A stretch of 64,000 bases of DNA from Gemmatimonadota bacterium (GCA_003222035.1 QHUS01000046.1:4299-68298), one strand, 5' to 3'. Positions 24,959 through 63,641 are shown, numbered from the stretch's first letter. Program-made: numbers and translations. Notes: generated from the sequence alone by a model not told the origin.

Positions 24959-25044
24959 TGCCGAGGGCAGGACTCGAACCTGCACGGGGATCGCTCCCCA
25001 AGGGATTTTAAGTCCCTTGCGTCTACCGATTTCGCCACCCCGGC
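24959..25044 (-). tRNA. tRNA-Leu (anticodon UAA), long variable arm, CCA not encoded
   Basis: Minus strand: GCCGGGGTGGCGAAATCGGTAGACGCAAGGGACTTAAAATCCCTTGGGGAGCGATCCCCGTGCAGGTTCGAGTCCTGCCCTCGGCA. It has a 7-bp acceptor stem, an anticodon loop CTTAAAA, a T-loop TTCGAGT and discriminator A, and is followed by CCT. Confidence 0.9.
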
Positions 25045-27909: not shown

Positions 27910-29463
27910 ATGCGAACGCTCCGCGTCGTCTTTCTGCTCGCGAGCCCCGCCCTGATGGGCGGGGCTCGCGTCGCCGCGCAGGCCGTCGATCGGGCAGACG
28001 TCCCCGGCCGCGGCATGCTGCGCATCAGCTTCGATCCGCAGGTGATGACTTGGAACGATGTGTTCCTGAGCTCGGGCCGCATGAAGCTCGGCGCTCCGCT
28101 CACCGGGGACACCGTGGGTGGCCGCTCCATCCCGCTGGTCGCACAGATGGAGCAAAACGTTCGACTCGTCACCGGGATGGCGGGATTCGTCGCGAGCCTC
28201 TGGCAGGGCGTGCTCACCGTACGGCAGGAGCGCCGGACCTATCCGATCACGGCGGAGGTCGGCGTCACGGACCGCCTCTCGGTAAGCCTGATGGTGCCGA
28301 TCGTGCGCGTGGCGACGCGCGCCGCCCTGCAGATCTCGAGCAAGGGCACCAACCTCGGGGTGAATCCCCTGGTGCTCAACGTGGCCGGCGCCCGGGGAAC
28401 AGACTCGCTCTTCTTCGCGCAGTTCGACACGGCTCTCGCCCGATTCGACCAGCAGATCACGGCGGGGAGCTACGGCTGCGGCGCGAATCCGTCGTGCGCT
28501 GCCAGGGACAGCTCGGTGTACTGGCACAACGTGCGCCAAGCGCTGCACGGATCCGTGTACGGTGTGGGACAGACCGGCTCGCCGTTCCTCCCGCTCGACA
28601 CCTCGGCCGCCGGCAGGGCGATCGATGACGCGGTCGGGCGGATCCAGCAGGGTCTCAACGTGACCTTCGGGATCGGGGGGTTCGATACGACGGTCGCCCT
28701 ACCCGCGGACACGCTGACGCTCGCGACGTTCGAGCAGGTGCTGGTCCAGCCGGATCCCACAGGATTCGGATACGCGAGCCTGCCGTTCCAGCGCAACTTC
28801 AACTACCGCCTAGGCGACGTGGAGCTGGCAGCGAAGTACCGCCTGCTGACCGGCGCCCATTACGCCACGGCCGTCCAGGCGATCGTCCGCCTCCCCACCG
28901 GTGCCGTAGACTCGGCGAGCGACTTCCTGCGTCAATGGGTCGGCGACCATCAGCTGGACCTCGAGGGACGGGTACAGCAGGAGCTGTCGGTGGGGCCGCT
29001 GTGGCTCAACGCCGCTCTGCGCGCGGGCACGCAGCGTCCGGGCACGCGGGTACGGCGCGTCGCACCGTTCGAGGCCTTCCTCGTGCCCGCGGCTGCCACG
29101 GTGGACATGCGCTGGGATCCGGGGGACTACGCCGGCGTCGACGTCGCGCCGATGATCCAGTTTGCGCCGACGTTCGCCGCGGGAGTCACGGTGGGCTACT
29201 TCACCCAGGCGAGTGATCATTACGCGTATCAATCGGCGCAGGACTCGGTCGCGCTGGCGGCACGGATGGGCGCTCCGACGGCGGCCAGCGCGCTCGACCA
29301 GGGGACGTCGCAGCGACGCGTGCGCCTGGGTTTCGCCGCCACCTACCACACGCCGACGGTCGAGGGCGGGTTCTCGATCGAGCAGACCGTCAGCGGCGCG
29401 GGACTCGTCCTCGGGGCAACGCTGTACCGGATCGTGCTTCGGGTGTCGCGGAAGCTCTTCTGA
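27910..29463 (+). CDS. putative outer-membrane beta-barrel protein (possibly of the MetA-pathway/phenol-degradation-like transporter family; weak recollection)
   Basis: ORF trimmed to ATG 27910. Signal peptide MRTLRVVFLLASPALMGGARVAAQA. Alternating beta-strand pattern. RLGDVELAAKYRL motif. C-terminal ...RKLF. Confidence 0.55.
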   Translation: MRTLRVVFLLASPALMGGARVAAQAVDRADVPGRGMLRISFDPQVMTWNDVFLSSGRMKLGAPLTGDTVGGRSIPLVAQMEQNVRLVTGMAGFVASLWQGVLTVRQERRTYPITAEVGVTDRLSVSLMVPIVRVATRAALQISSKGTNLGVNPLVLNVAGARGTDSLFFAQFDTALARFDQQITAGSYGCGANPSCAARDSSVYWHNVRQALHGSVYGVGQTGSPFLPLDTSAAGRAIDDAVGRIQQGLNVTFGIGGFDTTVALPADTLTLATFEQVLVQPDPTGFGYASLPFQRNFNYRLGDVELAAKYRLLTGAHYATAVQAIVRLPTGAVDSASDFLRQWVGDHQLDLEGRVQQELSVGPLWLNAALRAGTQRPGTRVRRVAPFEAFLVPAAATVDMRWDPGDYAGVDVAPMIQFAPTFAAGVTVGYFTQASDHYAYQSAQDSVALAARMGAPTAASALDQGTSQRRVRLGFAATYHTPTVEGGFSIEQTVSGAGLVLGATLYRIVLRVSRKLF

Positions 29464-31111
29464 GCAGCTCCGCCGCGTGGCTCAAGGCGGTCCGCATGTC
29501 GGGGTCGCCGAGCATACGCGCGAGCTCCCGGGTGCGGGCGTCGCCCGTGACGACCTGCACGTCGCTCGTCGCAATTCCACCGCGCGCCCCTTTGGCCACG
29601 ACCAGGTGGTGGTCGGCATAGACACCGATCTGCGGAAGATGGGTGATCACGAGCGCCTGCCGGCCGCCGCCGGTTCGCGCGACGGTCGCGAGCGCCGCGC
29701 CCACCTGCCCGCCCACCTCGCCGCCGATGCCCTGGTCGACCTCGTCGAACACGAGCGTAGGCACCGCGTCGTGCTGCGCCAGGACGACCTTCAGCGCCAG
29801 CATGAGCCGTGAGAGCTCGCCACCTGAGGCGACCTTCGAAAGCGGGCGGGCTTCCAGGCCGACGTTGAGCTGCACCTCGAACGTCACGTCCTCGGCACCA
29901 TGTGCGTGCTGCGTGGTGCGTGGTTGCAACCGCGCCGCGAAGCGGCCACCCTGCATGCCGAGCGCTGGGAGCAGCTCGTTTACGGCGTTCGCCAGGCGAG
30001 CGGCGCCCTTCGTCCGCGTGGCAGTGAGGGCGGCGCAGGCCCCCGCGAACTCCGCCGCGGCGGTCGCACGCTGCTCGGCGATGGTGCGCAGGTCCAGGTC
30101 CGCCGTGTCGAGCAGCTCGAGCTCGCGCGCGGCGCGATCGCGGGTCGCGAGGACGTCGGGCACCGAGGGACCGTATTTCTGAGTGAGCCGGAACAACACG
30201 TCCCGGCGCTGCTCTACCGTGGCGAGCCGCTGCGGGTCGCTCTCGATCCCGGCGGCGTACTCGCGCGCCGCCTGGGCCAGCTCCGCGAGATTGGCGAACG
30301 CGCCGTCCAGGAGCTCCTGCCACTTGGCCACCGCTGGCGAGGGATCGAGGCGCGTGAGGCCGGCGAACAGCTTGGCCGCGCGCGAGAGCCCGCCCGTGTC
30401 GATCGCCTGCTCGAGCTCGCGCGACAGGCGCCCCAGCTCATCGGCATGGGCAAGGCGCTTCGACTCGACGTCCAGCGCCTCCACCTCCCCCGCCCGGGGT
30501 GCGGCCTTCTCGATTTCGTCGACGACATGGCGCAGGTAGTCCGCTTTGCGGCGCACCTCCTCGCGGGCGGCCGTGAGCTCCTGCTCGCGCCGCTCGAGCT
30601 CATGCAAGCGGTCGTGGGCATTCCGCACCGCGGTGCGTTCGACGACCGCGTCCGCGTAGCTGTCGAGGATATCGCGCTGGGCATCTCCGCGGAGCAGGGA
30701 TTGCGTCTCGTGCTGACCGTGGAGGTCCACCAGCAGAGCGCCGAGCTGCGCCAGGACACTCACGGTCGTGGGACTGCCGTTGACCCAGGCGCGGGAGCGC
30801 CCCTCTGCCGTGATCTCGCGCTTGAGAATCAGCCGCCCGTCCTCCAGCTCCACCCCCAGGCTGGTGAAGGATGGTGGAGGACGGTGGAAGATGGTGGAGG
30901 TGAAGTCAAAGGCTCCCTCGATCACGGCTCGTTCCGCGCCGGGGCGGACGACGTCTGCCGAAGCGCGCTCGCCAAGCAGGAGGGCGAGGGCGTCCACCAA
31001 CATGGATTTGCCCGCCCCCGTCTCGCCGGTAAGGACGTTGAGACCACGAGCGAGGGGGAGCGTGACGTCGGCAATGACCGCGAGATCGCGGACGCGCAGC
31101 TCCGCCAGCAC
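29390..31111 (-). CDS. recN: DNA repair protein RecN
   Basis: LRVRDLAVIADVTLPLARGLNVLTGETGAGKSML...ASGGELSRLMLAL...LVFDEVDQGIGG motifs. GTG start. Confidence 0.9.
   Translation of the reverse strand: MLAELRVRDLAVIADVTLPLARGLNVLTGETGAGKSMLVDALALLLGERASADVVRPGAERAVIEGAFDFTSTIFHRPPPSFTSLGVELEDGRLILKREITAEGRSRAWVNGSPTTVSVLAQLGALLVDLHGQHETQSLLRGDAQRDILDSYADAVVERTAVRNAHDRLHELERREQELTAAREEVRRKADYLRHVVDEIEKAAPRAGEVEALDVESKRLAHADELGRLSRELEQAIDTGGLSRAAKLFAGLTRLDPSPAVAKWQELLDGAFANLAELAQAAREYAAGIESDPQRLATVEQRRDVLFRLTQKYGPSVPDVLATRDRAARELELLDTADLDLRTIAEQRATAAAEFAGACAALTATRTKGAARLANAVNELLPALGMQGGRFAARLQPRTTQHAHGAEDVTFEVQLNVGLEARPLSKVASGGELSRLMLALKVVLAQHDAVPTLVFDEVDQGIGGEVGGQVGAALATVARTGGGRQALVITHLPQIGVYADHHLVVAKGARGGIATSDVQVVTGDARTRELARMLGDPDMRTALSHAAELLRRASATPEARSGTALPRGRVPRR
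30863..30902. repeat. 4x10-nt array GGTGGAGGNN inside recN (in frame)
   Basis: GGTGAAGGAT GGTGGAGGAC GGTGGAAGAT GGTGGAGGTG. It encodes TSTIFHRPPPSFT. Confidence 0.85.
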
Positions 31112-39410: not shown

Positions 39411-41763
39411 GCTCACCCTCCAGGGCCTTGAGACCCTGCTCCAGCACGGTATCCACCTCGCGCTCACGCAGGGTGCGCGCCGGATCGCGGAACGTGCAGT
39501 GCCAGGCTACGCTGCGGTACCCCTCCGGGATCCCGGACCCGCGATACTCGTCGAACACCTCGAGCCGCTCGAGCAGGCTCCCCGCGGCCCGCCGCAGGAC
39601 GTCGGACACCTGGGCCGCGCTGACGCCTGGCGGGAGCAAAAGCGCGAGGTCGCGCTCAACGGGCGGTTGCGGCGGCAGCGGCCGGTAGGTGATGATCCCG
39701 CGCTCGGCCAGCGTCAACCGCACCTCGAAGCCGAACAGCGGCGCCGCCCACACGGGGGCGTCGGCCTCGAGGGGTCCCGCCCAGCCCAACACGGCCCCGT
39801 TCCCCCGTTCCACCGCCTCCCACCCTACCGCACCGCCTGCCAGCGGCTGCAGGTCGCAGGACGGCGCGGCGGCGGCCACCGCTAACTCAAAGTGGTACTT
39901 CAGGTCCCATATGTCCATATCAGGTACTTTAGCACCATCGGACCAGTGGGGCGGCCTGCGGGCCCCGGTCAGAACCCCCGCTACCGAAGTCCACTCGTCG
40001 ATCGCACTCGCCCTCCGCCGAAACACTGTTCCCACCTCGAAGAGTCGCACGTCGCGGTTGCGATTCGCCCAATTGTGCTCAACGCGCCCGATCAAGCCGG
40101 GAATGAGGCGCCGCCGCAGGTGGGCTTCCTCCACCGACATGGGGTTGAGGATCGCCACCGCGTCGGGCCCGTCCGCGGATCCGATGGGCAAGGTGCGAGC
40201 CTCGAGCAGGCCGGCGGAGGCGAGTGCGTCTCGGACCCGCGCGCGAGCCCGCTCTTCGGGGGCATCGGGCACGGTGCCGGGCCGGTAGGCGCGCAACTCG
40301 TCGGGGAACGCGTCGTACCCCTTGAGGCGGGCGACTTCCTCGATCAGGTCGACCTCGCGCGTTACGTCGGGGCGCCACCCCGGCACCTGGACGGCCAGGC
40401 GAGCGTCCTTCGGCGCCACGAAGAAGCCGACGCTGGTGAGCAGCCGCTCTACCTCGGAGCGCTCGATCGACACGCCGAGCAGCGTGTCCACGCGGTCGGG
40501 GCGAAGGAAGATCGTGCGCTCCTGCTGCGGCTCCGGCCACAAGTCCAGCGCGGGCGCTCGGATCTCGCCTCCTGCCACAGCCGCGATCAGCTCGACCGCC
40601 CGCCGCAACGCGTCGGGCATGCCGAGCATGTCGATGCCGCGCTCGAACCGGTAGCTCGACTCGCTCGACAGCCCGAGCGCCCGGCGGGTGCGTCTGATGC
40701 GGGTCGGTTGGAAGTAGGCGCACTCGAGCACCAGATCGGTGGTGTCGCTGCTCACCTCCGATTCCGCGCTCCCCATCACGCCCGCAACGATGGTGGGCCG
40801 CTCGGCATCGCAGATCGCGGTCATTTCGGTCGTGAGTGTGCGGGTCGCGCCGTCGAGCGTGACGATTTTCTCGCCGGGCCGCGCGCGCCGCACGACGACG
40901 GCCGGTCCGCGCAGCTTGGCGAGGTCGAACGCGTGCAGCGGCTGGTTCAGCTCGAAGAGGATGTAGTTGGTTGCGTCGACCACGTTGTTGATCGGCCGCT
41001 GTCCCACCGCGGTGAGCCGCTCGGCAAGCCAGGCGGGACTGCTCCCCACCCGGACGCCCCGGATCACCGCGATCATGTAGCGCGGGGCGCCCTCGGGATC
41101 TTCCAGGCGAACCTCCACGCCGTCCACGACGCCCCGGTCGGACTGTCGGACGCTCGGACGGTCGGTCAGTGCCTTCGCTCCCGGGATGACGGGAAGCTTT
41201 ACGGGGGCACCAAGCGACGCGCCGAGCTCTCGGGCGACGCCCTTGTGACACAGGAGATCCGGCCGGTTCGCGGCCACGTCGATCACGATCTGGTGGTCGG
41301 CGAGGCCGACGGCGTCAACGAACCGGGTCCCCGGCGGGGCGGCGGTATCGAGCTCGAGAATGCCCGACTGATCGGCGCCGAGCCCGAGCTCCTTGGCCGA
41401 GCAGAGCATGCCATTCGATTCCACGCCACGGATCTTTTTGCGCTCGAGCTTGAGCCCTCCCGGCAGCACGGCACCGACAGGAGCGTAGGGATAGGTCTTG
41501 CCGGCCTGTACGTTCGGCGCGCCGCACACGACTTCGACCGGCCCGTTCGCGCCTCCGGCGTCGACGAGACAGAGAGACAGGCGATCGGCGTCGGGATGCT
41601 TTTTCACCTCGAGCACGCGCGCGATGCGGACGTCGCCCAGCTCCTGGTGGAGCGGGATCACGGCATCTACCGCGGCGACGTGCAGTGTCAGCCGCTCGGC
41701 GGCGTCGCGCGCGTCGAGGGGCCGGTTGAGGAGCGCCTCGAGCCAGCGGCGCGAAACGATCAT
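39385..41763 (-). CDS. pheT: phenylalanine-tRNA ligase beta subunit
   Basis: N-terminal tRNA-binding domain (HPDADRLSLC), then B3/4, B5 and FDX-ACB regions. ATGA overlap with pheS. Confidence 0.95.
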   Translation of the reverse strand: MIVSRRWLEALLNRPLDARDAAERLTLHVAAVDAVIPLHQELGDVRIARVLEVKKHPDADRLSLCLVDAGGANGPVEVVCGAPNVQAGKTYPYAPVGAVLPGGLKLERKKIRGVESNGMLCSAKELGLGADQSGILELDTAAPPGTRFVDAVGLADHQIVIDVAANRPDLLCHKGVARELGASLGAPVKLPVIPGAKALTDRPSVRQSDRGVVDGVEVRLEDPEGAPRYMIAVIRGVRVGSSPAWLAERLTAVGQRPINNVVDATNYILFELNQPLHAFDLAKLRGPAVVVRRARPGEKIVTLDGATRTLTTEMTAICDAERPTIVAGVMGSAESEVSSDTTDLVLECAYFQPTRIRRTRRALGLSSESSYRFERGIDMLGMPDALRRAVELIAAVAGGEIRAPALDLWPEPQQERTIFLRPDRVDTLLGVSIERSEVERLLTSVGFFVAPKDARLAVQVPGWRPDVTREVDLIEEVARLKGYDAFPDELRAYRPGTVPDAPEERARARVRDALASAGLLEARTLPIGSADGPDAVAILNPMSVEEAHLRRRLIPGLIGRVEHNWANRNRDVRLFEVGTVFRRRASAIDEWTSVAGVLTGARRPPHWSDGAKVPDMDIWDLKYHFELAVAAAAPSCDLQPLAGGAVGWEAVERGNGAVLGWAGPLEADAPVWAAPLFGFEVRLTLAERGIITYRPLPPQPPVERDLALLLPPGVSAAQVSDVLRRAAGSLLERLEVFDEYRGSGIPEGYRSVAWHCTFRDPARTLREREVDTVLEQGLKALEGELGVRRRES
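41137..41168. repeat. 4x8-nt array GTCGGACN inside pheT (in frame)
   Basis: GTCGGACT GTCGGACG CTCGGACG GTCGGTCA. It encodes TDRPSVRQSDR. Confidence 0.8.
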
Positions 41764-44175: not shown

Positions 44176-45078
44176 TTAGCCCGCCTTGAGCGGGTCCACA
44201 AGCCCGAACGCCTTGCCGTCGCGCCCCAGACGACCGGCGACGATATCGGGATCGTGCTCGAACAGCAGCAACCATCCTTCCGCTTCGGCCCGCGCGTACA
44301 GGCGGCGCTTCGACTCGAGCGTCACGAGCGGCTCCAGGTCGTAGCCCATGATCCAGGGGAGCGGGAGATGGGCACTGGTAGGCACAAGGTCCGCCAGGAA
44401 GCACGCCCGTTCGCCCGCGCTCTCGACCAGCACTGACTGATGATACGGCACGTGCCCCGGCGTCGGCATGCACCGGATCCCGGGCACGACCTCCGCGTCA
44501 CCATCGATGGGCGTGAACGGCACCGGCTCGAAATTATGTGGCAGATAGCTCGCCGCCGTGCGCTCGTTGGTGTGGCGCGCGAATTCGAGCTCGCGTTTTT
44601 GGACCACGTACGTCGCCTTCGGGAAGCTCAACTTCGTCGGACGGTCGGACGGTGGGACGGTCGGACCGTCCGGCGCTTGGTCGGCCGGCTCGCGATAGGT
44701 ATTGCCGCCGGCGTGATCGAAATGGAGATGGGTATTGATCACCCAGCGAACGTCATCGGGCCGGTATCGGAGCTCCGCGAGCGCGTCTTCGATCTGGGTC
44801 GGCCCGTGCTTCCCCTGATTCACGACGCCGTAGATGTCCCTAAACTTGTCGTCCTCTTTGTTCCCCAGGCCCGTGTCGACCAGGACGAGCCCGTCGCCGT
44901 GCTCGATCAGGAGGCAGCGCAGCGCGAGGGGGATGCGATTGCGATCGTCGGCGGGGATGCGGCGTTGCCACAGCGGCTTCGGTACCACGCCGAACATCGC
45001 GCCGCCGTCGAGGTGCTGCCTGCCGCCCTCCAGGGCATGACACTTCAGTCGACCGACCGTGAGAGACGTGTGGGGCAT
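44176..45078 (-). CDS. MBL-fold metallo-hydrolase
   Basis: LVDTGLG...THLHFDHAGGN (HxHxDH) motifs. The ATG at 45076-45078 shares one base with the upstream TGA. Confidence 0.8.
   Translation of the reverse strand: MPHTSLTVGRLKCHALEGGRQHLDGGAMFGVVPKPLWQRRIPADDRNRIPLALRCLLIEHGDGLVLVDTGLGNKEDDKFRDIYGVVNQGKHGPTQIEDALAELRYRPDDVRWVINTHLHFDHAGGNTYREPADQAPDGPTVPPSDRPTKLSFPKATYVVQKRELEFARHTNERTAASYLPHNFEPVPFTPIDGDAEVVPGIRCMPTPGHVPYHQSVLVESAGERACFLADLVPTSAHLPLPWIMGYDLEPLVTLESKRRLYARAEAEGWLLLFEHDPDIVAGRLGRDGKAFGLVDPLKAG
44636..44675. repeat. 5x8-nt array GTCGGACN inside the MBL-fold hydrolase gene (in frame)
   Basis: GTCGGACG GTCGGACG GTGGGACG GTCGGACC GTCCGGCG. It encodes PDGPTVPPSDRPT. Confidence 0.8.
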
Positions 45079-46943: not shown

Positions 46944-47095
46944 GGCGGAATCTAACGCGGAACGCGGAAGGCGGAGCCGAAGTCGGAACGCGGAAGGCGG
47001 AACGCGGAACAGCAAGGAAAGGTCGCTCGGCTTGCCGCCCTCGGAGCGAAGTTCGCTTGACTGTTCCGCATTCCGCGTTCCGAGTTCCGAGTTCT
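46944..47095. repeat. heptamer-armed inverted-repeat element, copy A (GCGGAAN units / loop / NTTCCGC units)
   Basis: CGGAA recurs at 46958, 46965, (46972, 46978), 46984, 46991, 46998 and 47005. TTCCG recurs at 47064, 47071, 47078 and 47085. The inner 26 nt of the arms are 23/26 complementary, with a 52-nt loop. The element fills the rex-stop to arcA-ATG gap. Confidence 0.9.
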
Positions 47096-47731: not shown

Positions 47732-48550
47732 TCGTGCGCTCCAACGCAAGAGTCGGGCGAAGATTTCCGGCGCCAACGTCTCGGGACGCGCCGCGGGATC
47801 GAGCCCGAGCGCCCCGAGTCCTTCCTCGACCTGTGCGGCCGGGCGCCCTGTCGCACCCAGCAGCACGTTGCGCAGCTGTTTGCGGCGGCGCGCGAAGCAG
47901 GCGGTGACGAACCGGCGAAACGCCGCGAGCTCGGCGACCGCGACGAGCGGATGGGCGAGCGGCGTGAGACGGAGCAGCGCGCTCGCGACGTTGGGGCGTG
48001 GCGTGAACGCGCCGGCGCGAACCGGGAACAGTTTCTCCACGCGACACACGGCTTGCACACCGACCGAGGGTGCGCCGTACGTCTTCGAGCCCGGCCGCGC
48101 CGCGATGCGATCGGCCACTTCGGCCTGGACGAGAAACACGATGCACGCCGGGAGCGGCGGCGTGAGGGCTTTGTCGATCAGCGGGGAGGTGATGGCGTAG
48201 GGGATGTTGCCGATCACCTTCAATTGCGGATTGGCGATTGCGGATTGCGGATTGGCAAGGCAAGCTACGGCCAGCGCATGCCAGTCCTGCTTGAGGGCGT
48301 CCCCCGCCACGACGTCCACATTGCCCAATCCCCCATCCGCAATCCGCAATCCGCAATCATGAGCCAGCCGGCGGTCCCGTTCGATGGCGATTACGTAACG
48401 TACGCGAGGGGCGAGGACGGCCGTCAGGCTCCCCTCCCCCGCCCCGATCTCGACCACGACGTCCCCGGGCGTCGGATCGAGGGCGTCGACGATGCGCTGC
48501 AGGATGTTCCGGTCGGTGAGGAAGTGCTGGCCGAGGGGGGGACGGGTCAC
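47726..48550 (-). CDS. rsmA: 16S rRNA (adenine1518/1519-N6)-dimethyltransferase
   Basis: LGQHFL, VVEIGAGEGSLT and IGNIPYAITSP motifs. GTGA overlap with the upstream stop. Contains two in-frame heptamer arrays (see the repeat feature). Confidence 0.9.
   Translation of the reverse strand: MTRPPLGQHFLTDRNILQRIVDALDPTPGDVVVEIGAGEGSLTAVLAPRVRYVIAIERDRRLAHDCGLRIADGGLGNVDVVAGDALKQDWHALAVACLANPQSAIANPQLKVIGNIPYAITSPLIDKALTPPLPACIVFLVQAEVADRIAARPGSKTYGAPSVGVQAVCRVEKLFPVRAGAFTPRPNVASALLRLTPLAHPLVAVAELAAFRRFVTACFARRRKQLRNVLLGATGRPAAQVEEGLGALGLDPAARPETLAPEIFARLLRWSARL
48224..48356. repeat. pair of inverted 5x7-nt arrays (TTGCGGA / TCCGCAA) inside the ksgA coding sequence
   Basis: 48224-48258 is TTGCGGA TTGGCGA TTGCGGA TTGCGGA TTGGCAA. 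48322-48356 is TGCCCAA TCCCCCA TCCGCAA TCCGCAA TCCGCAA. They are 29/35 complementary with a 63-nt spacer. Both are in frame (peptides LANPQSAIANPQ and DCGLRIADGGL). Confidence 0.9.
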
Positions 48551-52777: not shown

Positions 52778-52795
52778 CCCCGCCCCCTTCCCAGC

Positions 52796-52895
52796 GCGGA
52801 AGTCGGAACGCGGAACGCGGAACAGAAATGGGAGGTCGCTCGGCGCGCGACGCCGGTTTCGATGTTCCGCGTTTCGCCTTCCGCGTTCCGCGTTC
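52796..52895. repeat. heptamer-armed inverted-repeat element, copy B (same family as 46944..47095)
   Basis: GCGGAAG TCGGAAC GCGGAAC GCGGAAC, a 40-nt loop, then GTTCCGC GTTTCGC CTTCCGC GTTCCGC GTTC. The arms are 24/28 complementary. The loop shares AGGTCGCTCGGC with copy A. The element ends inside the recJ TGA. Confidence 0.9.
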
Positions 52896-54600: not shown

Positions 54601-55301
54601 TCGCCGGCGTACAGCAAGACGCCGCAGGCCTCGCAGCCTTCGATCGAGGCGCCCCGCTGAATCAGGGCCCGCCGCTGGGTGGGGACGGCCGTGAAGCAGT
54701 GACCGCAGGCGTCGCCATGCAGGGGGTACAGGGCCAGCGGCGCTTTGCCACGGCGGATGCGCTCGTAGCGTGCCAACAGCGAGGCGCCCACGTTCGCCGT
54801 CGCGCGCTCGCGCTCCGCGAACGCCTGCTCTCGCTGGGCCACAATCGTCTCCCGCTTCCCGGCCAATGCCTCGCGCTGCGGCGCCTGCCGCGCCCGCACC
54901 TCGGCGAGGCCCTTCTCGGCCTCGGCGGCCTTCCGCTCCGCTTCCGCCACGGCATCGCCCGAGCGCATGAACTCCGCCTCCTCTTTGGCGAGCACCGAGC
55001 GCGCCAGGTCCAGCTCGGCCATGAGCGTCGACGCCTCCTTGGCACCGCGCACCCACTCGAGACGCTGGCGGCGCTGCTCCTGCATCGTGCGATAGTTAGC
55101 GATCTTGCCCTCCAGCGCGTCCCGACGGTCGATGGCCGCCTGGATCGCCGCCTGCGCCGTGGCGAGCGCGCTCTCCGCCGTCGCCTGTGCCGCGTCCAGC
55201 GTCGCGAGCTCGGGGGCGAGCGCCGCGAGCGCTTCGTCCGTCGCGGTCACCGCCTGATCTTTCTCCTGCAGGATCAACAACGCCTCAAGGTCCGGGTGCA
55301 C
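54597..55301 (-). CDS. coiled-coil zinc-ribbon protein (COG1579/DUF164-like)
   Basis: ORF trimmed to GTG 55299-55301, directly after GGAGGAGAG. Long coiled coil, then CGHCFTAV...CEACGVLLY. Confidence 0.7.
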   Translation of the reverse strand: MHPDLEALLILQEKDQAVTATDEALAALAPELATLDAAQATAESALATAQAAIQAAIDRRDALEGKIANYRTMQEQRRQRLEWVRGAKEASTLMAELDLARSVLAKEEAEFMRSGDAVAEAERKAAEAEKGLAEVRARQAPQREALAGKRETIVAQREQAFAERERATANVGASLLARYERIRRGKAPLALYPLHGDACGHCFTAVPTQRRALIQRGASIEGCEACGVLLYAGE

Positions 55302-57027
55302 CTCTCCTCCTCTTCGCGATCTTGTAGCGCGGGTAACGCTTGCGGAGCTCGTCGAACACGCGGCGCTTCTCCGCAATCAGGGATACCTGTCGCTCGGGGC
55401 TTTCGAACGGCAGCTGGTCGTCGAGCTGCTCCAGGTGCCGCTCGAGCCGCCGGGCTTCCATCCAGCTCACGGCCAGCTCGTACATTTCGTTCGGATCACG
55501 CCCGCCGAGCCCCTCCGCCTTGAGCAGCTCGTAGGCCCGCGCGGAGGTGTCGTCGAGCGCCAGGACCGCGTCGTCGGCGACGCTCTCGAACACGGCGCGG
55601 TACGGCGCGAACTCGACTTCCTCGGGGTCGACGGCGTCGGTCACGCGACTCTTCCAGGGTTCGCCCTCGAGCATCAGGAGCAGGAGGGCTTTCTCGGCGC
55701 TGGCGGGCAGGACGGGGGAGGACGGGGGAGGAGGGTGGAGGACGGTGGAGGGGCCACGCGCCCCGACTTCGCGCTCGAGAACGTCCTTCCGCACCCCGGC
55801 CGCCTCCGCTGCCCGGGAGATGTAGAGCTCCCGGGTAATGGGATCTTTCGCCGCCCGAATCGTCGGCAGGAGGCGATCGAGGGCTCGGCGCCGACCCGGT
55901 AGGGTACCGAAGAATCCTTTGCGGTCGAGGATCTGGATCTTCCGCTCCAGCACGTCGACCGCGTCCTCGAGGATCTGCTCGAGCGCCGCAGCTCCCCCCT
56001 TCTGCACGAGCGTGTCGGGGTCCTCGCCGCCGGGGAGCGTGGCCACGCTGACGCGCAACCCTTCGCGCAGCAGCTCGTCGCCCGCCCGGAAGGTGGCGCG
56101 CAGGCCGGCCTCGTCGGAGTCGTACAAGAGGATCACCTGCGGCGCGTGGCGTTTCACCAGCTGGGCCTGGTCCGGCGTGAGCCCGGTCCCGAGCGGCGCC
56201 CCCACCTCCTCGATACCGGCGAGCGACAGACGAAGCACGTCGAAATACCCCTCGACCAGGATGGCGCGCTCCGCCTTGCGCATCGCGTGCTTCGCGACGT
56301 GCAGGTTGTAGAGCAGTTGCCCTTTGTGGAAGATCGGGGTGTCCGGGGAGTTGAGATACTTGGGCTCTCCTTCGCCGAGAATGCGACCGCCGAACCCGAC
56401 CACGCGGCCCCGCAGGTCGTGAATTGGGAAGAGCAAACGACCGCGGGACCGGGGCGCGAGCGTGCCGTCCTCGCGTTTAGCCAACAGACCCGCCTCGAGG
56501 AGCACTTCGTCACGCACGCCCAAGACTTTCATCGCCTCGAGGAACGCCTTCCCCTTCGGGGCGTACCCGAGGCCCAGCGGCAGCACGGTGTCGAGATCGA
56601 GGCGGCGGGTCTTCAGGTAATCGCGAGCGATTTGGGCTTCGGGACTGTCGCGCAACTGGTGGGCGAACCAATCCGCCGCCGCGGCGACGGCGCTATAGAG
56701 CGGCTCGCGCGGATCGGGACCGGTGGGGCCGCGCTCGGGGATCGCGATTCCCACGCGACGCGCCACCTCGCGGACCGCGCTGGGATAGTCCATGCCGAGC
56801 TTCTTCATCAAGAACGTGAAGACGTCACCGCCGGCGTGACACACGAAGCAGTAGAACATCCCCTTCCGGGGGATGACCGCGAAGTTGCGATGCGCCCCGC
56901 CGTGAAACGGACACGCCGCCCGGTAATCGGATCCGGTGCGTTTCAACTCGACGTGCTCGCCGATGATCCCGACCAGGTCGGCCGCTTCGCGGACCTGCTC
57001 GATCACGTCGTCGGGAATCAGGCTCAC
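55285..57027 (-). CDS. dnaG: DNA primase
   Basis: Zinc finger CPFHGGAHRNFAV...CFVCHAGGD and TOPRIM (VEGYFD...DSDEAG). GTGA overlap with mutS2. Confidence 0.9.
   Translation of the reverse strand: MSLIPDDVIEQVREAADLVGIIGEHVELKRTGSDYRAACPFHGGAHRNFAVIPRKGMFYCFVCHAGGDVFTFLMKKLGMDYPSAVREVARRVGIAIPERGPTGPDPREPLYSAVAAAADWFAHQLRDSPEAQIARDYLKTRRLDLDTVLPLGLGYAPKGKAFLEAMKVLGVRDEVLLEAGLLAKREDGTLAPRSRGRLLFPIHDLRGRVVGFGGRILGEGEPKYLNSPDTPIFHKGQLLYNLHVAKHAMRKAERAILVEGYFDVLRLSLAGIEEVGAPLGTGLTPDQAQLVKRHAPQVILLYDSDEAGLRATFRAGDELLREGLRVSVATLPGGEDPDTLVQKGGAAALEQILEDAVDVLERKIQILDRKGFFGTLPGRRRALDRLLPTIRAAKDPITRELYISRAAEAAGVRKDVLEREVGARGPSTVLHPPPPSSPVLPASAEKALLLLMLEGEPWKSRVTDAVDPEEVEFAPYRAVFESVADDAVLALDDTSARAYELLKAEGLGGRDPNEMYELAVSWMEARRLERHLEQLDDQLPFESPERQVSLIAEKRRVFDELRKRYPRYKIAKRRRGAPGP
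55711..55750. repeat. 4x10-nt array GA(C/G)GG(G/T)GGAG inside dnaG (in frame)
   Basis: GACGGGGGAG GACGGGGGAG GAGGGTGGAG GACGGTGGAG. It encodes STVLHPPPPSSPVL in the linker before the C-terminal domain. Confidence 0.85.
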
Positions 57028-59300
57028 GCGCGGAACTCCACGATGGTGACGCCATGGCCGCCCTGATTCGGCGGCGCAAAGCCGAAGCGCGTGACCCGTG
57101 AGTCGGCGGCGAGCCGCTCGTGCACGAACTGACGCAGGGCCCCGGTGCCCTTACCGTGAATTACGCGGAGATACGGCAAATCGGCCGACACGGCATCGTC
57201 GAGGGCCTTGACGAGCAGCGGCTCGGCTTCGGCAACGCGGAGGCCGATGAGGGAGATCTCCGCAGCCGCGTCGACGGACGGTGTGCGAGCGGTGGAGGGC
57301 GGTCGAGGATGGTGGAGGGCGGTGGAGGGAGAGGCCTTACGTGCGCCCTTCAGCTCGTCCAGCGACATCCACCCTTCCCTGGCCGGATCCCCGGCCGTTT
57401 CCCCGGCCGTTTGTTCGATTGCTTTTTCTACGAGCCGCCGCGCTTCTTTCGCCGTCGCCTCGTCTACCGCGGCGCGCGCCCGGCCGAGCGCTTCTTCGAC
57501 CTTGCGGCGGGCTTCCAGGAGGTAGGCCCGCGCCTGCTCGCGCGCCTGGCGTTCGAGCCCCGACGCGCGCGCCTTCACCTCCTGTTCGCGTGCGGCTACC
57601 TCGGTGGCCCGAGTCTCGACCCGCTCGGCGTCGGCACGGAGCGCAGAGTCGCGGGCGGCGAGCTCTTGCTCACGGGCCTCGAGCTCCCGGGCGCGCGCCT
57701 CGACGGAGGCCAGGAGCGCGTCGAGCGTGCGCTCGGCGCGGGGCACGGCGCGCTCCGCGATCTCCAGGACCGGAGCGGCGACCCCGAGGCGGCGCGCGAT
57801 AGCCAGCCCGTAGGAGCGACCCGGTACGCCCTTGAGCAGGCGATAGGTGGGGGTCAACGTCTCGGCGTCGAACTGAAGCGACGCGTTCACGATCCCCACG
57901 GTGTCGGCGGCGAGCTGCTTCAAGGCACCCAGGTGAGTTGTCGCCAGCGTCACCGCGCGACGACGGGTGAGCGTCTGCAATACCGCCGTCGCCAGCGCGC
58001 CACCCTCGGCCGGGTCGGTGCCGCTGCCGATCTCGTCGAGCAGAATCAGCGATCCGGCACCCGCCCGCTCGAGAATGTCTCGCAGGACAGCCACGTGAGC
58101 GGAAAACGTCGACAGGCTCGCCGCGATCGACTGCCGATCGCCGATGTCCGCGAACACGTCGGTGAATACCGGAAGCACGGATTGCGGACCGATGGGCGGG
58201 ATGATGCCGCTCTGCGCCATGAGGACGAGCAGGCCCACGGCTTTGATCAGCACCGTCTTGCCACCAGTGTTTGGCCCGGAGACCAGCACGGTGAATTCGT
58301 CAGGTGCCAGGACGAGATCGAAGGGAACGGCATCGGGGACGAGCAGCGGGTGCCTGCCGCCGCGGATCTCCAGCGCACCCGGGCCGATCGACGGCGCGAA
58401 GCCGTTCACCTCCACCGCGTACCGCGCCCGAGCGCACAGGTCGTCAAACGCGATGCACATCTCCCACGCGGCGGCAATCGCCTCGCTCTCGGGGCGCAAC
58501 AGCTCGGTGAGGTCCCGCAGCACCTGCAGGACTTCGCGCTGCTGCGCAACCTCCGCCGCGCGCAGGGCGTTGCCGAGCTCGATCACTTCCGGCGGCTCGA
58601 CGAACACCGTGGCCCGCGTCGCCGACTCGTCGTGCACGATCCCGCCGATCCGGGCCCGCGCCGTGCTGCGCACGGGGATCACGTAGCGGCCTTCGCGCAC
58701 CGTGACGGCGGCATCGGGCGCACGCTCGGCGGGATCGAGGGCGGCGAGCATGGCTTCGAGCTTCTGGACCAGCCGAGCGCGTGCGTCACGAACGGAGCGG
58801 CGGGCGTGCGCAAGCCCGCGCGACGCACCATCCAGCACCTGACCGTCGCCGTCGAGCGAAGCGGCAAGCCGCTGCTCCAGTGCCTTCGGGGGAAGCTTCA
58901 CGCGGAGCGCCGCGGTCCGCGGCGCGTCGGTCTCGAGGCGCGCGAGCTCGGCAGCCACGACGCGCGCGGCCACCAGCGTGCGGCCTACGCCTGCCAGCGC
59001 CGCTCCCTCGAGTGCGCTCCCCGGCACGCCCAGCAGCTCGACCACAGCCGCGATGTCGGGGACGGGCTCGGCGCGGATGCCGTCGTCGGTGAGCAGCAGG
59101 GCGGCGAGCTCCGCCACCTGCGCGAGGGCGTCGCGGACGGTGCCGGGATCGGTGGAGGGGACGCGGTGGGTCACGCGCGCGGCGCCAAGCGGTCCCACGG
59201 CATGCGCCGCCACTCGCTCCAGCGCGGCCGGGAACTCGAGCGTCTCCAGGACTCCAGGGGTCCGTGGGCTGGCGCCCGGCGTCGGTGCCCCACCGGTCAT
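57024..59300 (-). CDS. mutS2: endonuclease MutS2 (with an Smr domain)
   Basis: Walker A SGPNTGGKT, DEIGSGTDP, and the C-terminal Smr motif LRVIHGKGTGALR. Confidence 0.9.
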   Translation of the reverse strand: MTGGAPTPGASPRTPGVLETLEFPAALERVAAHAVGPLGAARVTHRVPSTDPGTVRDALAQVAELAALLLTDDGIRAEPVPDIAAVVELLGVPGSALEGAALAGVGRTLVAARVVAAELARLETDAPRTAALRVKLPPKALEQRLAASLDGDGQVLDGASRGLAHARRSVRDARARLVQKLEAMLAALDPAERAPDAAVTVREGRYVIPVRSTARARIGGIVHDESATRATVFVEPPEVIELGNALRAAEVAQQREVLQVLRDLTELLRPESEAIAAAWEMCIAFDDLCARARYAVEVNGFAPSIGPGALEIRGGRHPLLVPDAVPFDLVLAPDEFTVLVSGPNTGGKTVLIKAVGLLVLMAQSGIIPPIGPQSVLPVFTDVFADIGDRQSIAASLSTFSAHVAVLRDILERAGAGSLILLDEIGSGTDPAEGGALATAVLQTLTRRRAVTLATTHLGALKQLAADTVGIVNASLQFDAETLTPTYRLLKGVPGRSYGLAIARRLGVAAPVLEIAERAVPRAERTLDALLASVEARARELEAREQELAARDSALRADAERVETRATEVAAREQEVKARASGLERQAREQARAYLLEARRKVEEALGRARAAVDEATAKEARRLVEKAIEQTAGETAGDPAREGWMSLDELKGARKASPSTALHHPRPPSTARTPSVDAAAEISLIGLRVAEAEPLLVKALDDAVSADLPYLRVIHGKGTGALRQFVHERLAADSRVTRFGFAPPNQGGHGVTIVEFRA
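57291..57330. repeat. 4x10-nt array GGTGGAGGNN inside mutS2 (in frame)
   Basis: GGTGGAGGGC GGTCGAGGAT GGTGGAGGGC GGTGGAGGGA. It encodes PSTALHHPRPPST in the linker before the Smr domain. A perfect 12-nt tandem duplication (TCCCCGGCCGTT x2) lies at 57388-57411. Confidence 0.85.
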
Positions 59301-61415: not shown

Positions 61416-62497
61416 TCGAGCAGCTCACCCACGAGACGACTGGTGTGGTCGACGAGCGCGACGATCTTGTCGTACGGCATTCTAGTGGGACCCATGACCC
61501 CGATCACACCCGCGAGCGGCCCGAGACGGTACGACGCGGTCACCAGCGTGAAAGGCGCGAGCGTCGCAGCTTCGTGCTCGCTGCCGATCGTGATGGTGAG
61601 CCCCTGGCCAAGGCGCCTCGCCAACGCCTCGCGCAGTATCTCGCGGCGCTCCGTGACCTCCATGAGCCCCTGCAGCCGCTCCTTGGTAGCGAATTCCGGC
61701 TGCCCGGCGAGGAGCTGCGCGCTGCCCAGCAGGACCCCGCCGGGGGCGACGCCCGTCGCGGGAACGTCGAACAGGTCGTCCGCTTCCTGAATGAAGATGT
61801 TCAGGAGCTCGCTCGAATCCGGGTCGGGGGCGGCATCGCGAAGCCGCTCGGAGAGCGTGGCCCGGATCTCCCGCAGGCGCAGGCCAGCCAGCCGCTCGTT
61901 CAGGACGAGGGCGACCTGCCCCAGGACCTCGGGCGCCATTACGGCGGGGACCTCGACGAAAATCGTGCGCACGGCGCCGCTCTTGAGGGTCAGCACCAGC
62001 AGCAGCCGATCGGAGCCCGCCTGCAACAGGTCGAGGCCCTCGAGCACCGCTTCGTCGAGCGTGGGGACCACTGCGACGCCCAGCTCCTTCGTGAGCACAC
62101 CGAGCACTTGCGCGGCCCGCTGGAGGATCTGATCCACCGCGCTCCGGTCGGAGAGCTCTTCACGGATCTGATGCGAGTCGGATGCCGACACCTGCGCCAG
62201 GCGCATGAGCGAGTTCACATATACGCGGTAGGCGAGATCCGTGGGGATGCGACCTGCGGAGGTGTGAGGGTGATACAGGTACCCTTTCTCCTCGAGAGCG
62301 CTCATCGTGTTGCGGATTGTGGCGGGGGACAGTGCCAGGCCGAACCGTCTGGCAATAGTTCGGCTGCCCGCCGGTTCGGCGGTTTCGACGTAGGTCTCGA
62401 TCACCGCTTCGAGGACCTGACGCTCGCGCTCGTTTAGGGAGGCCACTATCACGCTCAAGCTCTTACCTGCAAACAATTTAGCTCGCTCTCCCGGCAC
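61412..62497 (-). CDS. hrcA: heat-inducible transcription repressor HrcA
   Basis: LNERERQVLEAVIETYVETAEPAGSRTIAR winged helix. The start could be GTG 62495-62497 or a downstream TTG/GTG. Overlaps the hemW stop. Confidence 0.85.
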   Translation of the reverse strand: MPGERAKLFAGKSLSVIVASLNERERQVLEAVIETYVETAEPAGSRTIARRFGLALSPATIRNTMSALEEKGYLYHPHTSAGRIPTDLAYRVYVNSLMRLAQVSASDSHQIREELSDRSAVDQILQRAAQVLGVLTKELGVAVVPTLDEAVLEGLDLLQAGSDRLLLVLTLKSGAVRTIFVEVPAVMAPEVLGQVALVLNERLAGLRLREIRATLSERLRDAAPDPDSSELLNIFIQEADDLFDVPATGVAPGGVLLGSAQLLAGQPEFATKERLQGLMEVTERREILREALARRLGQGLTITIGSEHEAATLAPFTLVTASYRLGPLAGVIGVMGPTRMPYDKIVALVDHTSRLVGELLE

Positions 62498-63641
62498 CGG
62501 TCAAGTCGCGGACCAGGGCGTCGAGGCGGAGCCAGCCTTCGGGCCTGCATACCAAGCGCTCATCCCTAATCTCCACCCAGCCCCGTTCCACCCACTGGTC
62601 GATAAAGGTCGGTAGAGGACGGTAGAGGTCCGTAAGGGGCAACCCCGCATCAGTGCGCAACGAGAGATAGAGGCGTTCCAGTTCCCGCTGCTCGTCGGTG
62701 AGCACTTCCTCGGCCGCGACGGCCGATCGGCCCGCAACGATGGTGCGTCGATACGCCTCCCACTCCCGCACGTTCCAGCGACGTGCGCGGCCGTCGAACG
62801 AATGCGCAGCGGGGCCGAGGCCCAGATAGGGCCGCCCGGACCAGTAGGCGGAGTTGTGTCGCGAGCGGCGGCCGTCGCGCGCGGCGTTCGAGACCTCATA
62901 GAACTGATAGCCGCTGGCCGTGAGCCGCTCGTGCGCCAGAAGATACTCGTCGGCGTATCGCTCGTCGTCGGGCATGGAGGCCGCCCCGCGCGAGATCCAA
63001 CGGGCGAGGGGGGTGCGTTCCTCGACCGCGAGGCCATACAGCGAGAGGTGATCGGGGTGCAGCGCGCACGCGAGATCGAGATCCCGCGCCCACTCCCGCC
63101 CCAGCTCGGCGGGCAACGCGAAGATCAAGTCCAGCGACACATTGCTGATTCCCGCGACGCGGAGCGACCGCACGGCCGTGCTGATCCGCGCCGCATCGTG
63201 CGAGCGATGCATCCATTTCAACACTCCATCGTCGAAGGACTGCGCTCCCAGTGACACGCGATTGATGCCGGCGCGCCGCCAAAGTTCCGCGGACTCGGGC
63301 GTTACGTCTTCGGGATTGGCTTCGAGCGTAACTTCAACGGCGTCACGCGGGGACGGAGGACTAGAAGACGTCGCGCGAAAGGCGTCGCGCAGAGACGTGA
63401 GCAAGGCCGAGATCGCGTCGGGCGGGAGGAGCGAAGGCGTGCCTCCGCCGAAGTAGATTGTCTCCAACCCTTGGCCGAAAACCCCGGGCTTGCGTCCGGG
63501 GTCAGCGGCCGCGACCAGCCGCAACTCCTCCAGCACGGCCTGCACATACTCGCGGGCCGGGATCCGCTTGCGGACCGCGATGGAGAAGTCGCAGTAGGAG
63601 CAGCGCCGGTGGCAGAAGGGGATGTGGAGATAAATATGCAT
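62478..63641 (-). CDS. hemW: radical SAM heme chaperone HemW (HemN-like, oxygen-independent coproporphyrinogen oxidase family)
   Basis: YLHIPFCHRRCSYCDF (CxxxCxxC) and YFGGGTPS motifs. Confidence 0.85.
   Translation of the reverse strand: MHIYLHIPFCHRRCSYCDFSIAVRKRIPAREYVQAVLEELRLVAAADPGRKPGVFGQGLETIYFGGGTPSLLPPDAISALLTSLRDAFRATSSSPPSPRDAVEVTLEANPEDVTPESAELWRRAGINRVSLGAQSFDDGVLKWMHRSHDAARISTAVRSLRVAGISNVSLDLIFALPAELGREWARDLDLACALHPDHLSLYGLAVEERTPLARWISRGAASMPDDERYADEYLLAHERLTASGYQFYEVSNAARDGRRSRHNSAYWSGRPYLGLGPAAHSFDGRARRWNVREWEAYRRTIVAGRSAVAAEEVLTDEQRELERLYLSLRTDAGLPLTDLYRPLPTFIDQWVERGWVEIRDERLVCRPEGWLRLDALVRDLTGAGRAS
62601..62640. repeat. 4x10-nt array GGTAGAGGNN-like inside hemW (in frame)
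   Basis: GATAAAGGTC GGTAGAGGAC GGTAGAGGTC CGTAAGGGGC. It encodes LTDLYRPLPTFI. Confidence 0.7.

Follow-up and report, generated by a model that had tools for sequence, protein, structure and literature searches.

The subject of this analysis is a 64,000-nucleotide (nt) stretch of DNA from a Gemmatimonadota bacterium (GCA_003222035.1, QHUS01000046.1:4299-68298), referred to below as the window, and in particular the tandem arrays of 10-nt units (decamer arrays) that lie in frame within several of its housekeeping genes. The window has a G+C content of 68%, and its minus strand carries most of its genes. Four of them host decamer arrays, and these were identified by their open reading frames (ORFs) and by matches to protein family models.

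55285..57027, minus strand: dnaG, DNA primase, 580 amino acids (aa); NCBIfam TIGR01391 at 380 bits (cutoff 284), and Pfam
57024..59300, minus strand: mutS2, endonuclease MutS2, 758 aa; NCBIfam TIGR01069 at 654 bits (cutoff 400), and Pfam MutS_V and Smr
29390..31111, minus strand: recN, 573 aa; NCBIfam TIGR00634 at 477 bits (cutoff 408)
62478..63641, minus strand: hemW, radical SAM haem chaperone, 387 aa; NCBIfam TIGR00539 at 257 bits (cutoff 205)

Decamer arrays of the window

Arrays were called by Tandem Repeats Finder (TRF), which places the following repeats in the four genes.

55705..55751, minus strand: decamer array in dnaG; period 10, 4.7 copies, 89% matches
57289..57329, minus strand: decamer array in mutS2; period 10, 4.1 copies, 80% matches
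30858..30900, minus strand: decamer array in recN; about 4.3 units
62606..62628, minus strand: short decamer array in hemW; 2.3 units of CCTCTACCGN
57375..57412, minus strand: 12-nt in-frame repeat in mutS2; 3.2 copies, of which the final two are exact

That dnaG and mutS2 each hold about four 10-nt units, read in the same phase to give similar peptides and placed between domains, had been reported in an initial annotation made from the sequence alone, and each of these points is borne out. The plus-strand units of the dnaG array are GGGGGAGGAC GGGGGAGGAG GGTGGAGGAC GGTGGAGGGG, two of the four being GGGGGAGG and not GGTGGAGG; the coding strand is of the CCTCCACCGT type and encodes GPSTVLHPPPPSSPVL (aa 426-441). 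This array occupies the linker from the primase core to the C-terminal domain, on the C-terminal side of the Pfam DnaB_bind match (aa 375-414). In mutS2, the plus-strand units are GGTGGAGGGC GGTCGAGGAT GGTGGAGGGC GGTGGAGGGA, the coding strand is of the CCTCCACCGC type, and the encoded peptide SPSTALHHPRPPSTAR (aa 658-671) lies directly N-terminal of the Pfam Smr domain (aa 683-757). Six related loci (L002, L004, L005, L007, L011 and L039 of the set described below) carry the same array at the equivalent mutS2 site. Read codon by codon, the dnaG and mutS2 arrays agree in the pattern xCC TCC ACC xxC CTC CAC Cxx CCT Cxx CCx xCC TCC xCC, which yields the peptides PSTVLHPPPPSSPVL and PSTALHHPRPPSTAR.

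The arrays of recN and hemW had been overlooked. The recN array encodes TSTIFHRPPPSFTS (aa 71-85) and shares the register of the dnaG and mutS2 arrays; its site is kept across RecN proteins of 78-100% identity. A second, array-free group of RecN proteins has SDRPTVR--QSAQ at this position with its length unchanged, and the array therefore represents a replacement with no net insertion. The segment is a coil between two strands in an AlphaFold2 model, which is weak support for a loop given a shallow alignment and a mean predicted local distance difference test score of 64. The short hemW array is of the CCTCTACC type and encodes DLYRPLPT (aa 338-346); the HemW equivalog match stops at aa 338, and relatives hold a full four-unit array at this site. 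Across the window, the two-unit motif GGTGGAGGNNGGTGGAGG with up to three mismatches occurs 16 times against 1.37 expected from shuffles, and none of 100 shuffles attains 16.

A search for a G-rich inverted partner of the arrays in dnaG, mutS2 and recN found none; all three are single arms. As mRNA, the three fold no better than shuffled sequences (z = -0.65, -0.11 and +0.94). Runs of three G residues are absent from the recN array, number three in that of mutS2, and number four in that of dnaG, with one loop of 14 nt.

The perfect 12-nt tandem duplication also reported for mutS2 is exact, with two copies of TCCCCGGCCGTT at 57388-57411, and TRF lengthens it to the 3.2 copies listed above, encoding TAGE-TAGD-PARE. 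This repeat varies among orthologues and is an ordinary triplet-compatible duplication outside the decamer family, whose period, unlike that of the TAGE repeat, is no multiple of three.

Reading register, orientation and location

Since 10 leaves a remainder of 1 when divided by 3, consecutive units of a decamer array fall in frames a, b, c and a, and any array of at least three units is translated in all three. To be in the "same phase" is then merely to start the cycle at the same point. All three frames encode a single 10-residue cycle, S-T-x-L-H-R-P-P-P-x, offset by one unit, and because every array is read in three frames, no single frame can be selected as the tolerated one. The chance that three arrays agree in register is 1/9, and the shared register of the dnaG and mutS2 arrays is a coincidence.

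A wider sample was obtained from metagenomes by a scan with CCGYCCNNYRCCGYCCNNYRCCGYCC, which requires CCGYCC cores and returned at least 120 stretches. From these, 119 arrays on high-GC contigs and away from contig ends were analyzed, and all counts given for this set hold among the matches listed. Coding calls rest on a codon log-likelihood model of our own, trained on 148 dnaG/mutS2 segments of the clade; it replaced an assignment based on G+C at third codon positions, which gave wrong strands, for example in mutS2. Four-unit genic arrays with the C-rich strand as sense use register cabc six times and bcab and abca five times each (chi-square p = 0.94). Counted once per gene family, with the metagenome and orthologous sites combined, the registers stand at about 10:8:5 (p = 0.44). 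The array that forms the tail of RsmD in relatives uses cabc, unlike the arrays of the window.

In the initial annotation, the common phase had been taken to suggest a shared origin with selection for a tolerated Pro/Ser/Thr linker frame. The first half of this proposal stands insofar as the arrays form one nucleotide-repeat family, with a CCGYCC/CCACC-type unit and about four units per array. The second half is not supported: the 10-nt period uses all frames, and the 6:5:5 tally with arrays on both strands is essentially the outcome that had been named as refuting it.

With respect to orientation, 18 genic arrays of the metagenome set have the C-rich strand as sense and 11 the G-rich strand; at the orthologous loci the ratio is 53:1, drawn from only about five sites. 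As an example of a single site occupied both ways, an alpha/beta-hydrolase-like protein (GWYLPP...LLWFYGNGE) has decamer arrays in opposite orientations at position 4038 of contig L191 and position 10982 of contig L196, the peptides being LAAPRRPFAA and AAEGGEGRRGAV.

Location varies as well. Of the 119 metagenome arrays, 29 lie confidently within one ORF, 11 between two coding flanks, 38 next to one coding flank, and 41 without any. Genic sites in this set include a loop of CysK and a loop adjoining a helicase DEAH box. Genic arrays have at most four cores and those without a coding flank 3 to 18 units; five or more units are found in none of the 29 genic arrays vs. 9 of the 41 without a coding flank (Fisher p = 0.008). 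At the orthologous loci, 55 of 60 decamer arrays are genic, as are those of the window.

Orthologous sites and the wider repeat family

The orthologous loci are 80 in number and came from a scan of species-representative genomes, with dnaG identities to the window of 55-100%. All but one belong to Gemmatimonadota metagenome-assembled genomes (MAGs), the exception (L074) being titled Actinobacteria, and mutS2 lies upstream of dnaG in most. Five orthologous sites repeatedly carry decamer arrays: the C-terminal region of HemW, the linker preceding Smr in MutS2, the DnaG linker, aa 71-85 of RecN, and the RsmD tail. The hemW site is occupied in 20 loci, counting L080, whose array fits the expected position and whose hemW identity is unconfirmed.

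Alignment of orthologues, which had been proposed as a check, reveals hypervariable linkers in both DnaG and MutS2. The DnaG linker, from VLERE to LPxxAEK, consists almost wholly of short tandem repeats that differ by genome. Some are heptamer hairpins, such as (GGGATGC)4-loop-(CATCCCG)4, (GGAAGCG)3...(CGCTTCC)4 and (GGGAGCG)...(CGCTCCC), and others are octamers, such as (GGCGGTCA)4, or single decamer arrays. At least three tandem units (at least 85% match) are present in 47 of 65 DnaG linkers (28 heptamer, 14 decamer and 5 octamer arrays) vs. 0 of 325 dnaG control segments matched for length.

In MutS2 of L028, L030, L032, L036 and others, a beta-rich segment, VGDRVRTGQGKVGVVAEIRSDGRVVVEIG, is conserved between the coiled coil and Smr. 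The subclade of the window (57330-57420) is without this segment and has EGWMSLDELKRARKA followed by the array, so that a domain has been lost or replaced. At the rsmD/coaD junction of L046, L059, L067, L069 and L073, the RsmD C-terminal tail is made up of a decamer array that reaches the coaD start codon; the array thus sits where the ribosome-binding site of coaD is expected. The same junction in the window is array-free. A description of these junction arrays as coaD-upstream elements in the canonical register was rejected, given that the three-frame translation is the RsmD tail and the register is another.

Units within an array resemble one another (identity 0.76-0.85) more than they resemble orthologous units of the same index (0.70-0.77) or of a different index (0.68-0.75). 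Some arrays, in L057, L070 and L026, are 100% homogeneous with a unit specific to the genome. On these comparisons, the units of an array evolve in concert at the DNA level; since they are read in different frames, selection on the peptide cannot yield such homogeneity.

Length polymorphism among close strains had also been suggested as a test, and none is found: among proteins at least 90% identical (11 DnaG, 13 MutS2 and 14 RecN), the arrays differ by point changes only. A three-unit dnaG array, where relatives have four, occurs in L067 (11200-11420; MAG SMAG_U4502), and the reading frame breaks exactly there, which is the expected effect of one lost unit. This allele may be a true one-unit slippage variant or an assembly collapse.

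Close strains do differ by whole cassettes. In 4 of the 15 DnaG members of a 90% identity cluster, a heptamer hairpin cassette replaces the decamer array. For instance, L201 (4130-4450) and L203 (1180-1500) have flanks nearly identical to those of the window (55600-55900) around a sharp cassette swap, the L201 cassette being (ACGGGAG)4-loop-(CTCCCGN)4. Neither a target-site duplication nor terminal repeats are visible at the swap boundaries in the DNA alignment. The window's own dnaG is a 100% match to contig QHUK01000047.1 (L001) of a Gemmatimonadetes soil MAG. This MAG, AG3 (QHUK01), has two dnaG contigs, L001 and L002, whose dnaG is 100% and 89% identical to that of the window and whose linker cassettes differ, which suggests that the bin mixes two strains.

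The decamer arrays are accompanied by related repeats of other periods. The window holds 13 arrays of period 7, six of period 8 and three of period 10, compared to means of 0.73, 0.93 and 0.17 in 30 dinucleotide shuffles. In a 1.19-Mb set comprising the window and 79 orthologous loci (L002-L080), TRF finds 370 arrays of period 7, 68 of period 8, 60 of period 10, and 19 of period 3. Arrays of periods 7, 8 and 10 most often have four copies, whether genic or non-genic. Inverted pairs number 94 among the heptamers and octamers, and 172 of the 370 heptamer arrays are paired, the median gap being 40 nt. All 77 clearly skewed pairs of the 1.19-Mb set have the G-rich arm first and the C-rich arm second, with none in reverse. 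This G-then-C polarity is identical when read from either strand. Three intergenic pairs occur in the window.

46954-47010 with 47063-47094: intergenic heptamer pair (AACGCGG)n...(GTTCCGN)n
48223-48254 with 48326-48358: intergenic heptamer pair (ATTGCGG)n...(CAATCCG)n
52795-52823 with 52864-52895: intergenic heptamer pair (CGCGGAA)n...(GTTCCGC)n

Each of these runs from G-arm to C-arm between co-directional minus-strand genes and folds as a long hairpin (-58 to -82 kcal/mol, z from -4.1 to -7.5). The loops of two of the three share the motif GGTCGCTCGGC. Further arrays of the window with non-triplet units lie in frame within genes.

8141-8170, 8606-8630, 41135-41165, 44636-44670 and 16275-16305: in-frame non-triplet arrays, four of period 8 and one of period 7

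They are found in an RlmD-like U5-methyltransferase (at aa 135-144, with the G-rich strand as sense), the tail of the AccC biotin carboxylase (aa 486-494), PheT between B1 and B3_4 (aa 200-210), a metallo-beta-lactamase-fold protein (aa 138-149), and a protein of the 5-enolpyruvylshikimate-3-phosphate synthase family (aa 74-84). Arrays in different genes of one genome are 0.750 identical vs. 0.690 +/- 0.020 with permuted genome labels (p about 0.002), a test resting on 12 genomes that are phylogenetically non-independent. In a membrane-protein family (...ATWAV[KR]DG...LLAISFFYLLRMP) of L106, L122, L128 and L183, a full inverted decamer pair lies in frame; its G-arm encodes GGNGRQ-like and its C-arm PPVAARYRPLPP-like peptides, and the unit variants of one arm change together with those of the other from contig to contig.

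Origin of the arrays and comparison with known repeats

The decamer arrays of the window are probably single-arm members of a clade-wide, strand-asymmetric (G-rich/C-rich) family of simple sequence repeats (SSRs) that arises at the DNA level and is tolerated in proteins rather than selected as peptide, a reading to which a probability of roughly 0.7 is assigned. The family has units of 7, 8 or 10 nt, typically four to an array, and is pervasive in these soil Gemmatimonadales. The reading draws on the observations that the arrays belong to one family, are distributed as described, prefer no register, mostly have four units, are homogeneous within themselves and are swapped as cassettes, to which it adds a putative generating mechanism and a presumed absence of protein-level function.

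Under the proposed mechanism, arrays would arise through slipped-strand or structure-promoted replication error together with recombination. Those within genes would survive only in linkers, surface loops and C-terminal tails that tolerate them, and only if they bring no stop codon and an added length that is a multiple of three. Slippage or conversion of units would keep arrays homogeneous, and close strains would exchange whole linker cassettes. As the frame is kept only by steps of three units (30 nt), genic arrays are plausibly locked at three to four units, and this lock would add to an inherent preference for four units, which is present outside genes as well. The Pro/Ser/Thr-rich peptide would be a by-product of having the C-rich strand as sense.

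Several points weigh against this explanation. Site occupancy is very high, including nearly all relatives at hemW and 47 of 65 DnaG linkers; such occupancy across deep divergence, with the units changing, is not obviously predicted by neutral tolerance, and the repeat may have a function. In recN and cysK, the arrays replace a native segment of similar length, which simple expansion does not explain, and the gain of three units in one step is atypical of slippage. Passive tolerance likewise leaves the strict pair polarity (77:0) unexplained. Finally, the coding and non-coding calls depend on a model trained on dnaG and mutS2, the metagenome set requires CCGYCC cores that the window arrays match only in part, and the independent gene families number only about 23.

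A different possibility, regarded as unlikely, is that an active polar process writes or exchanges four-unit G-arm/C-arm cassettes at fixed sites, essential-gene linkers included, and that the repeats are maintained, for example because they may form structures that serve as signals in replication, transcription or co-translational pausing. The 77:0 polarity would fit such a process, as would the finding that the DnaG and HemW sites are filled almost universally although their units have turned over completely, the length-preserving replacement of the RecN and CysK loops, and the genome-specific flavour of the units. If it operates, strain-level linker polymorphism in proteins would be a side effect.

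It is similarly improbable that the arrays are functional nucleic-acid elements at domain boundaries which adjust replication, transcription or translation, pausing being one example. Candidate forms would be a template-strand G-quadruplex/i-motif tract, an unstructured C-rich mRNA tract or, in paired arrays, a hairpin. The four-unit preference would match the four G-tracts of a quadruplex, as has been argued for GGGNATC repeats (PMC4692102), and GGGCGG-type units fit (G3N7)3G3 by sequence alone. Continued occupancy of sites over deep divergence as units change is consistent with function, as are the uniform polarity of the 77 skewed pairs and the folding of the intergenic pairs (z from -4 to -7.5). 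However, the window arrays are poor canonical quadruplex motifs (no GGG in recN, three in mutS2, and a 14-nt loop in dnaG), the commonest heptamers, GCGGAAC and GCGGATT, have no G3 tract, and no regulatory role emerged for the repeats of Xanthomonas and Nostoc in the work of Rehm et al. (PMC4692102). Moreover, a single-arm decamer array is swapped for a heptamer hairpin cassette at one DnaG site in close strains, and no specific structure is therefore conserved.

Quite unlikely is the idea that the arrays are small mobile cassettes resembling transposable elements of the miniature inverted-repeat type (MITEs) or repetitive extragenic palindromes, which enter permissive sites, possibly by means of a transposase, in the manner of Rickettsia palindromic elements (RPEs). 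The sharp DnaG cassette swap amid near-identical flanks speaks for mobility, as do the hydrolase site filled in opposite orientations, the kindred units in many unrelated housekeeping genes and intergenic DNA, the unit flavour shared across sites of one genome, and the precedent of in-frame RPE insertions (PMC10969869). Against it, there is no consensus beyond the short unit; the swap boundaries have no terminal inverted repeats or target-site duplication; the unit, and even the period, varies between genomes at one site; and non-coding arrays of 3 to 18 units are microsatellite-like. No transposase turned up, and none was searched for, while a scan of IMG/VR gave only 23 matches in 2.9 million viral contigs.

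Arrays of common origin selected for one reading phase, and thus for a tolerated Pro/Ser/Thr linker, are very unlikely. Register abca is indeed found in all three four-unit arrays of the window and in the orthologous hemW, dnaG, mutS2 and recN arrays, and C-rich sense is in excess in genes (18:11, and 53:1 at the few orthologous sites). Nonetheless, each array covers all three frames with one peptide cycle, all registers are used (6:5:5, and about 10:8:5 by gene family) with the RsmD tail in cabc, G-rich-sense arrays and opposite orientations at one site occur, and most arrays of the metagenome set appear to lie outside genes.

Selection of the encoded peptide, as a proline-rich motif resembling an SH3 ligand (R-P-x-P-P) or a site of polyproline stalling, convergent in several proteins, is scarcely credible: an R-P-[LP]-P-P core does recur in DnaG, MutS2, RecN, HemW and others, and the arrays lie in exposed linkers, but such selection can give neither 10-nt identity over synonymous positions and three frames nor homogenisation, the repeats are common in non-coding DNA and in reverse orientation, and one DnaG site holds unrelated peptides in close strains. 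Three further candidates were rejected outright, namely an assembly artefact, since arrays of identical length occur in independent NCBI, ENA and JGI assemblies; CRISPR-like (clustered regularly interspaced short palindromic repeat) or iteron arrays, given the lack of spacers and the coding context; and anti-Shine-Dalgarno mimicry, as mRNA CCUCC and the 3' end of 16S rRNA are of the same sense and cannot pair.

With regard to known systems, an excess of long-unit SSRs was reportedly described by Mrazek et al. in 2007. Of the known kinds, the G-rich heptamer repeats that occur in Xanthomonas and Nostoc come closest to the repeats of these Gemmatimonadales. These GGGNATC/GGGGAYT repeats prefer four units and frequently form convergent inverted pairs (Rehm et al. 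2015, PMC4692102). They are 89-93% intergenic in two xanthomonads and form quadruplexes in vitro, and their function is not known (PMC4692102). Both kinds have head-to-tail units of more than six bases, strong G/C strand asymmetry, genome-wide dispersal, a four-unit mode, and convergent stem-loop pairs, here among the heptamers, octamers and the decamers of the membrane-protein family. They also share variation in unit and length at one locus between close relatives, some intragenic copies, and the lack of a known function. The present repeats differ in belonging to another phylum, in the coexistence of 7-, 8- and 10-nt units around a GCGG/CCGCC-like core, and in having many units without a G3 tract. 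They differ further in that a large share lies in frame in housekeeping or essential genes, with hairpin pairs translated as linkers, in that cassettes are replaced whole between near-identical strains, and in that the window arrays are 10-nt single arms.

The closest precedent for repetitive DNA translated within housekeeping genes is the RPEs, which, like other MITEs, are found in frame in protein-coding genes (reviewed in PMC10969869). As with RPEs, non-coding-type repetitive DNA lies in frame in many unrelated housekeeping genes, and the peptide is compatible with the fold. Unlike RPEs, which are about 100-150 bp long with a conserved consensus and peptide, the repeats described here are 30-100 nt of tandem 7-10-nt units with no fixed consensus, homogenised within an array, and some have no palindromic partner.

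Other comparisons are more distant. Phase-variable contingency loci also have non-triplet repeats in frame, where a single-unit change shifts the frame (cf. dnaG of L067). In contrast to those loci, the hosts here (DnaG, MutS2, RecN, HemW, PheT and AccC) are housekeeping rather than surface or restriction proteins, copy number does not vary in 38 near-identical proteins, and the repeats are long units in mid-gene linkers. Pro/Thr linkers encoded by triplet repeats likewise have a Pro/Ser/Thr-rich, presumably flexible inter-domain product, whereas the present arrays have a 10-nt period, repeat at the DNA level, and have a peptide period of 10 residues per three units. The short tandemly repeated repetitive (STRR) heptanucleotide sequences of cyanobacteria are lineage-specific tandem arrays dispersed in the genome, described mainly as intergenic. 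The Gemmatimonadales repeats resemble STRRs in being dispersed, lineage-specific tandem heptanucleotide arrays, and depart from that description in occurring in frame in essential genes and in having 10-nt units. Heptanucleotide repeats of Calothrix are cited in PMC4692102. A literature search found, within the library covered, no paper on such repeats in Gemmatimonadota, which is no proof of novelty.

The linkers of DnaG, MutS2, HemW and further conserved proteins in soil Gemmatimonadales are hypervariable and rich in Pro/Ser/Thr or Gly/Arg because they are translated microsatellite-like DNA. Recurrent "YRPLPP" or "LHRPPP" peptides in unrelated proteins should accordingly not be taken as a shared domain or motif. 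The arrays are a natural case of non-triplet repeats, and even hairpin repeats, held in frame inside essential genes, with an arithmetic copy-number lock, concerted evolution, and cassette exchange between strains as their salient features. They extend the four-unit G-rich repeats of Xanthomonas and cyanobacteria to another phylum and to coding sequence, and they offer many orthologous sites at which the origin and possible function of such repeats can be probed.

An Rfam search of the window gave no match at the arrays; its sole match was a tRNA gene on the minus strand.

24959-25044, minus strand: tRNA gene

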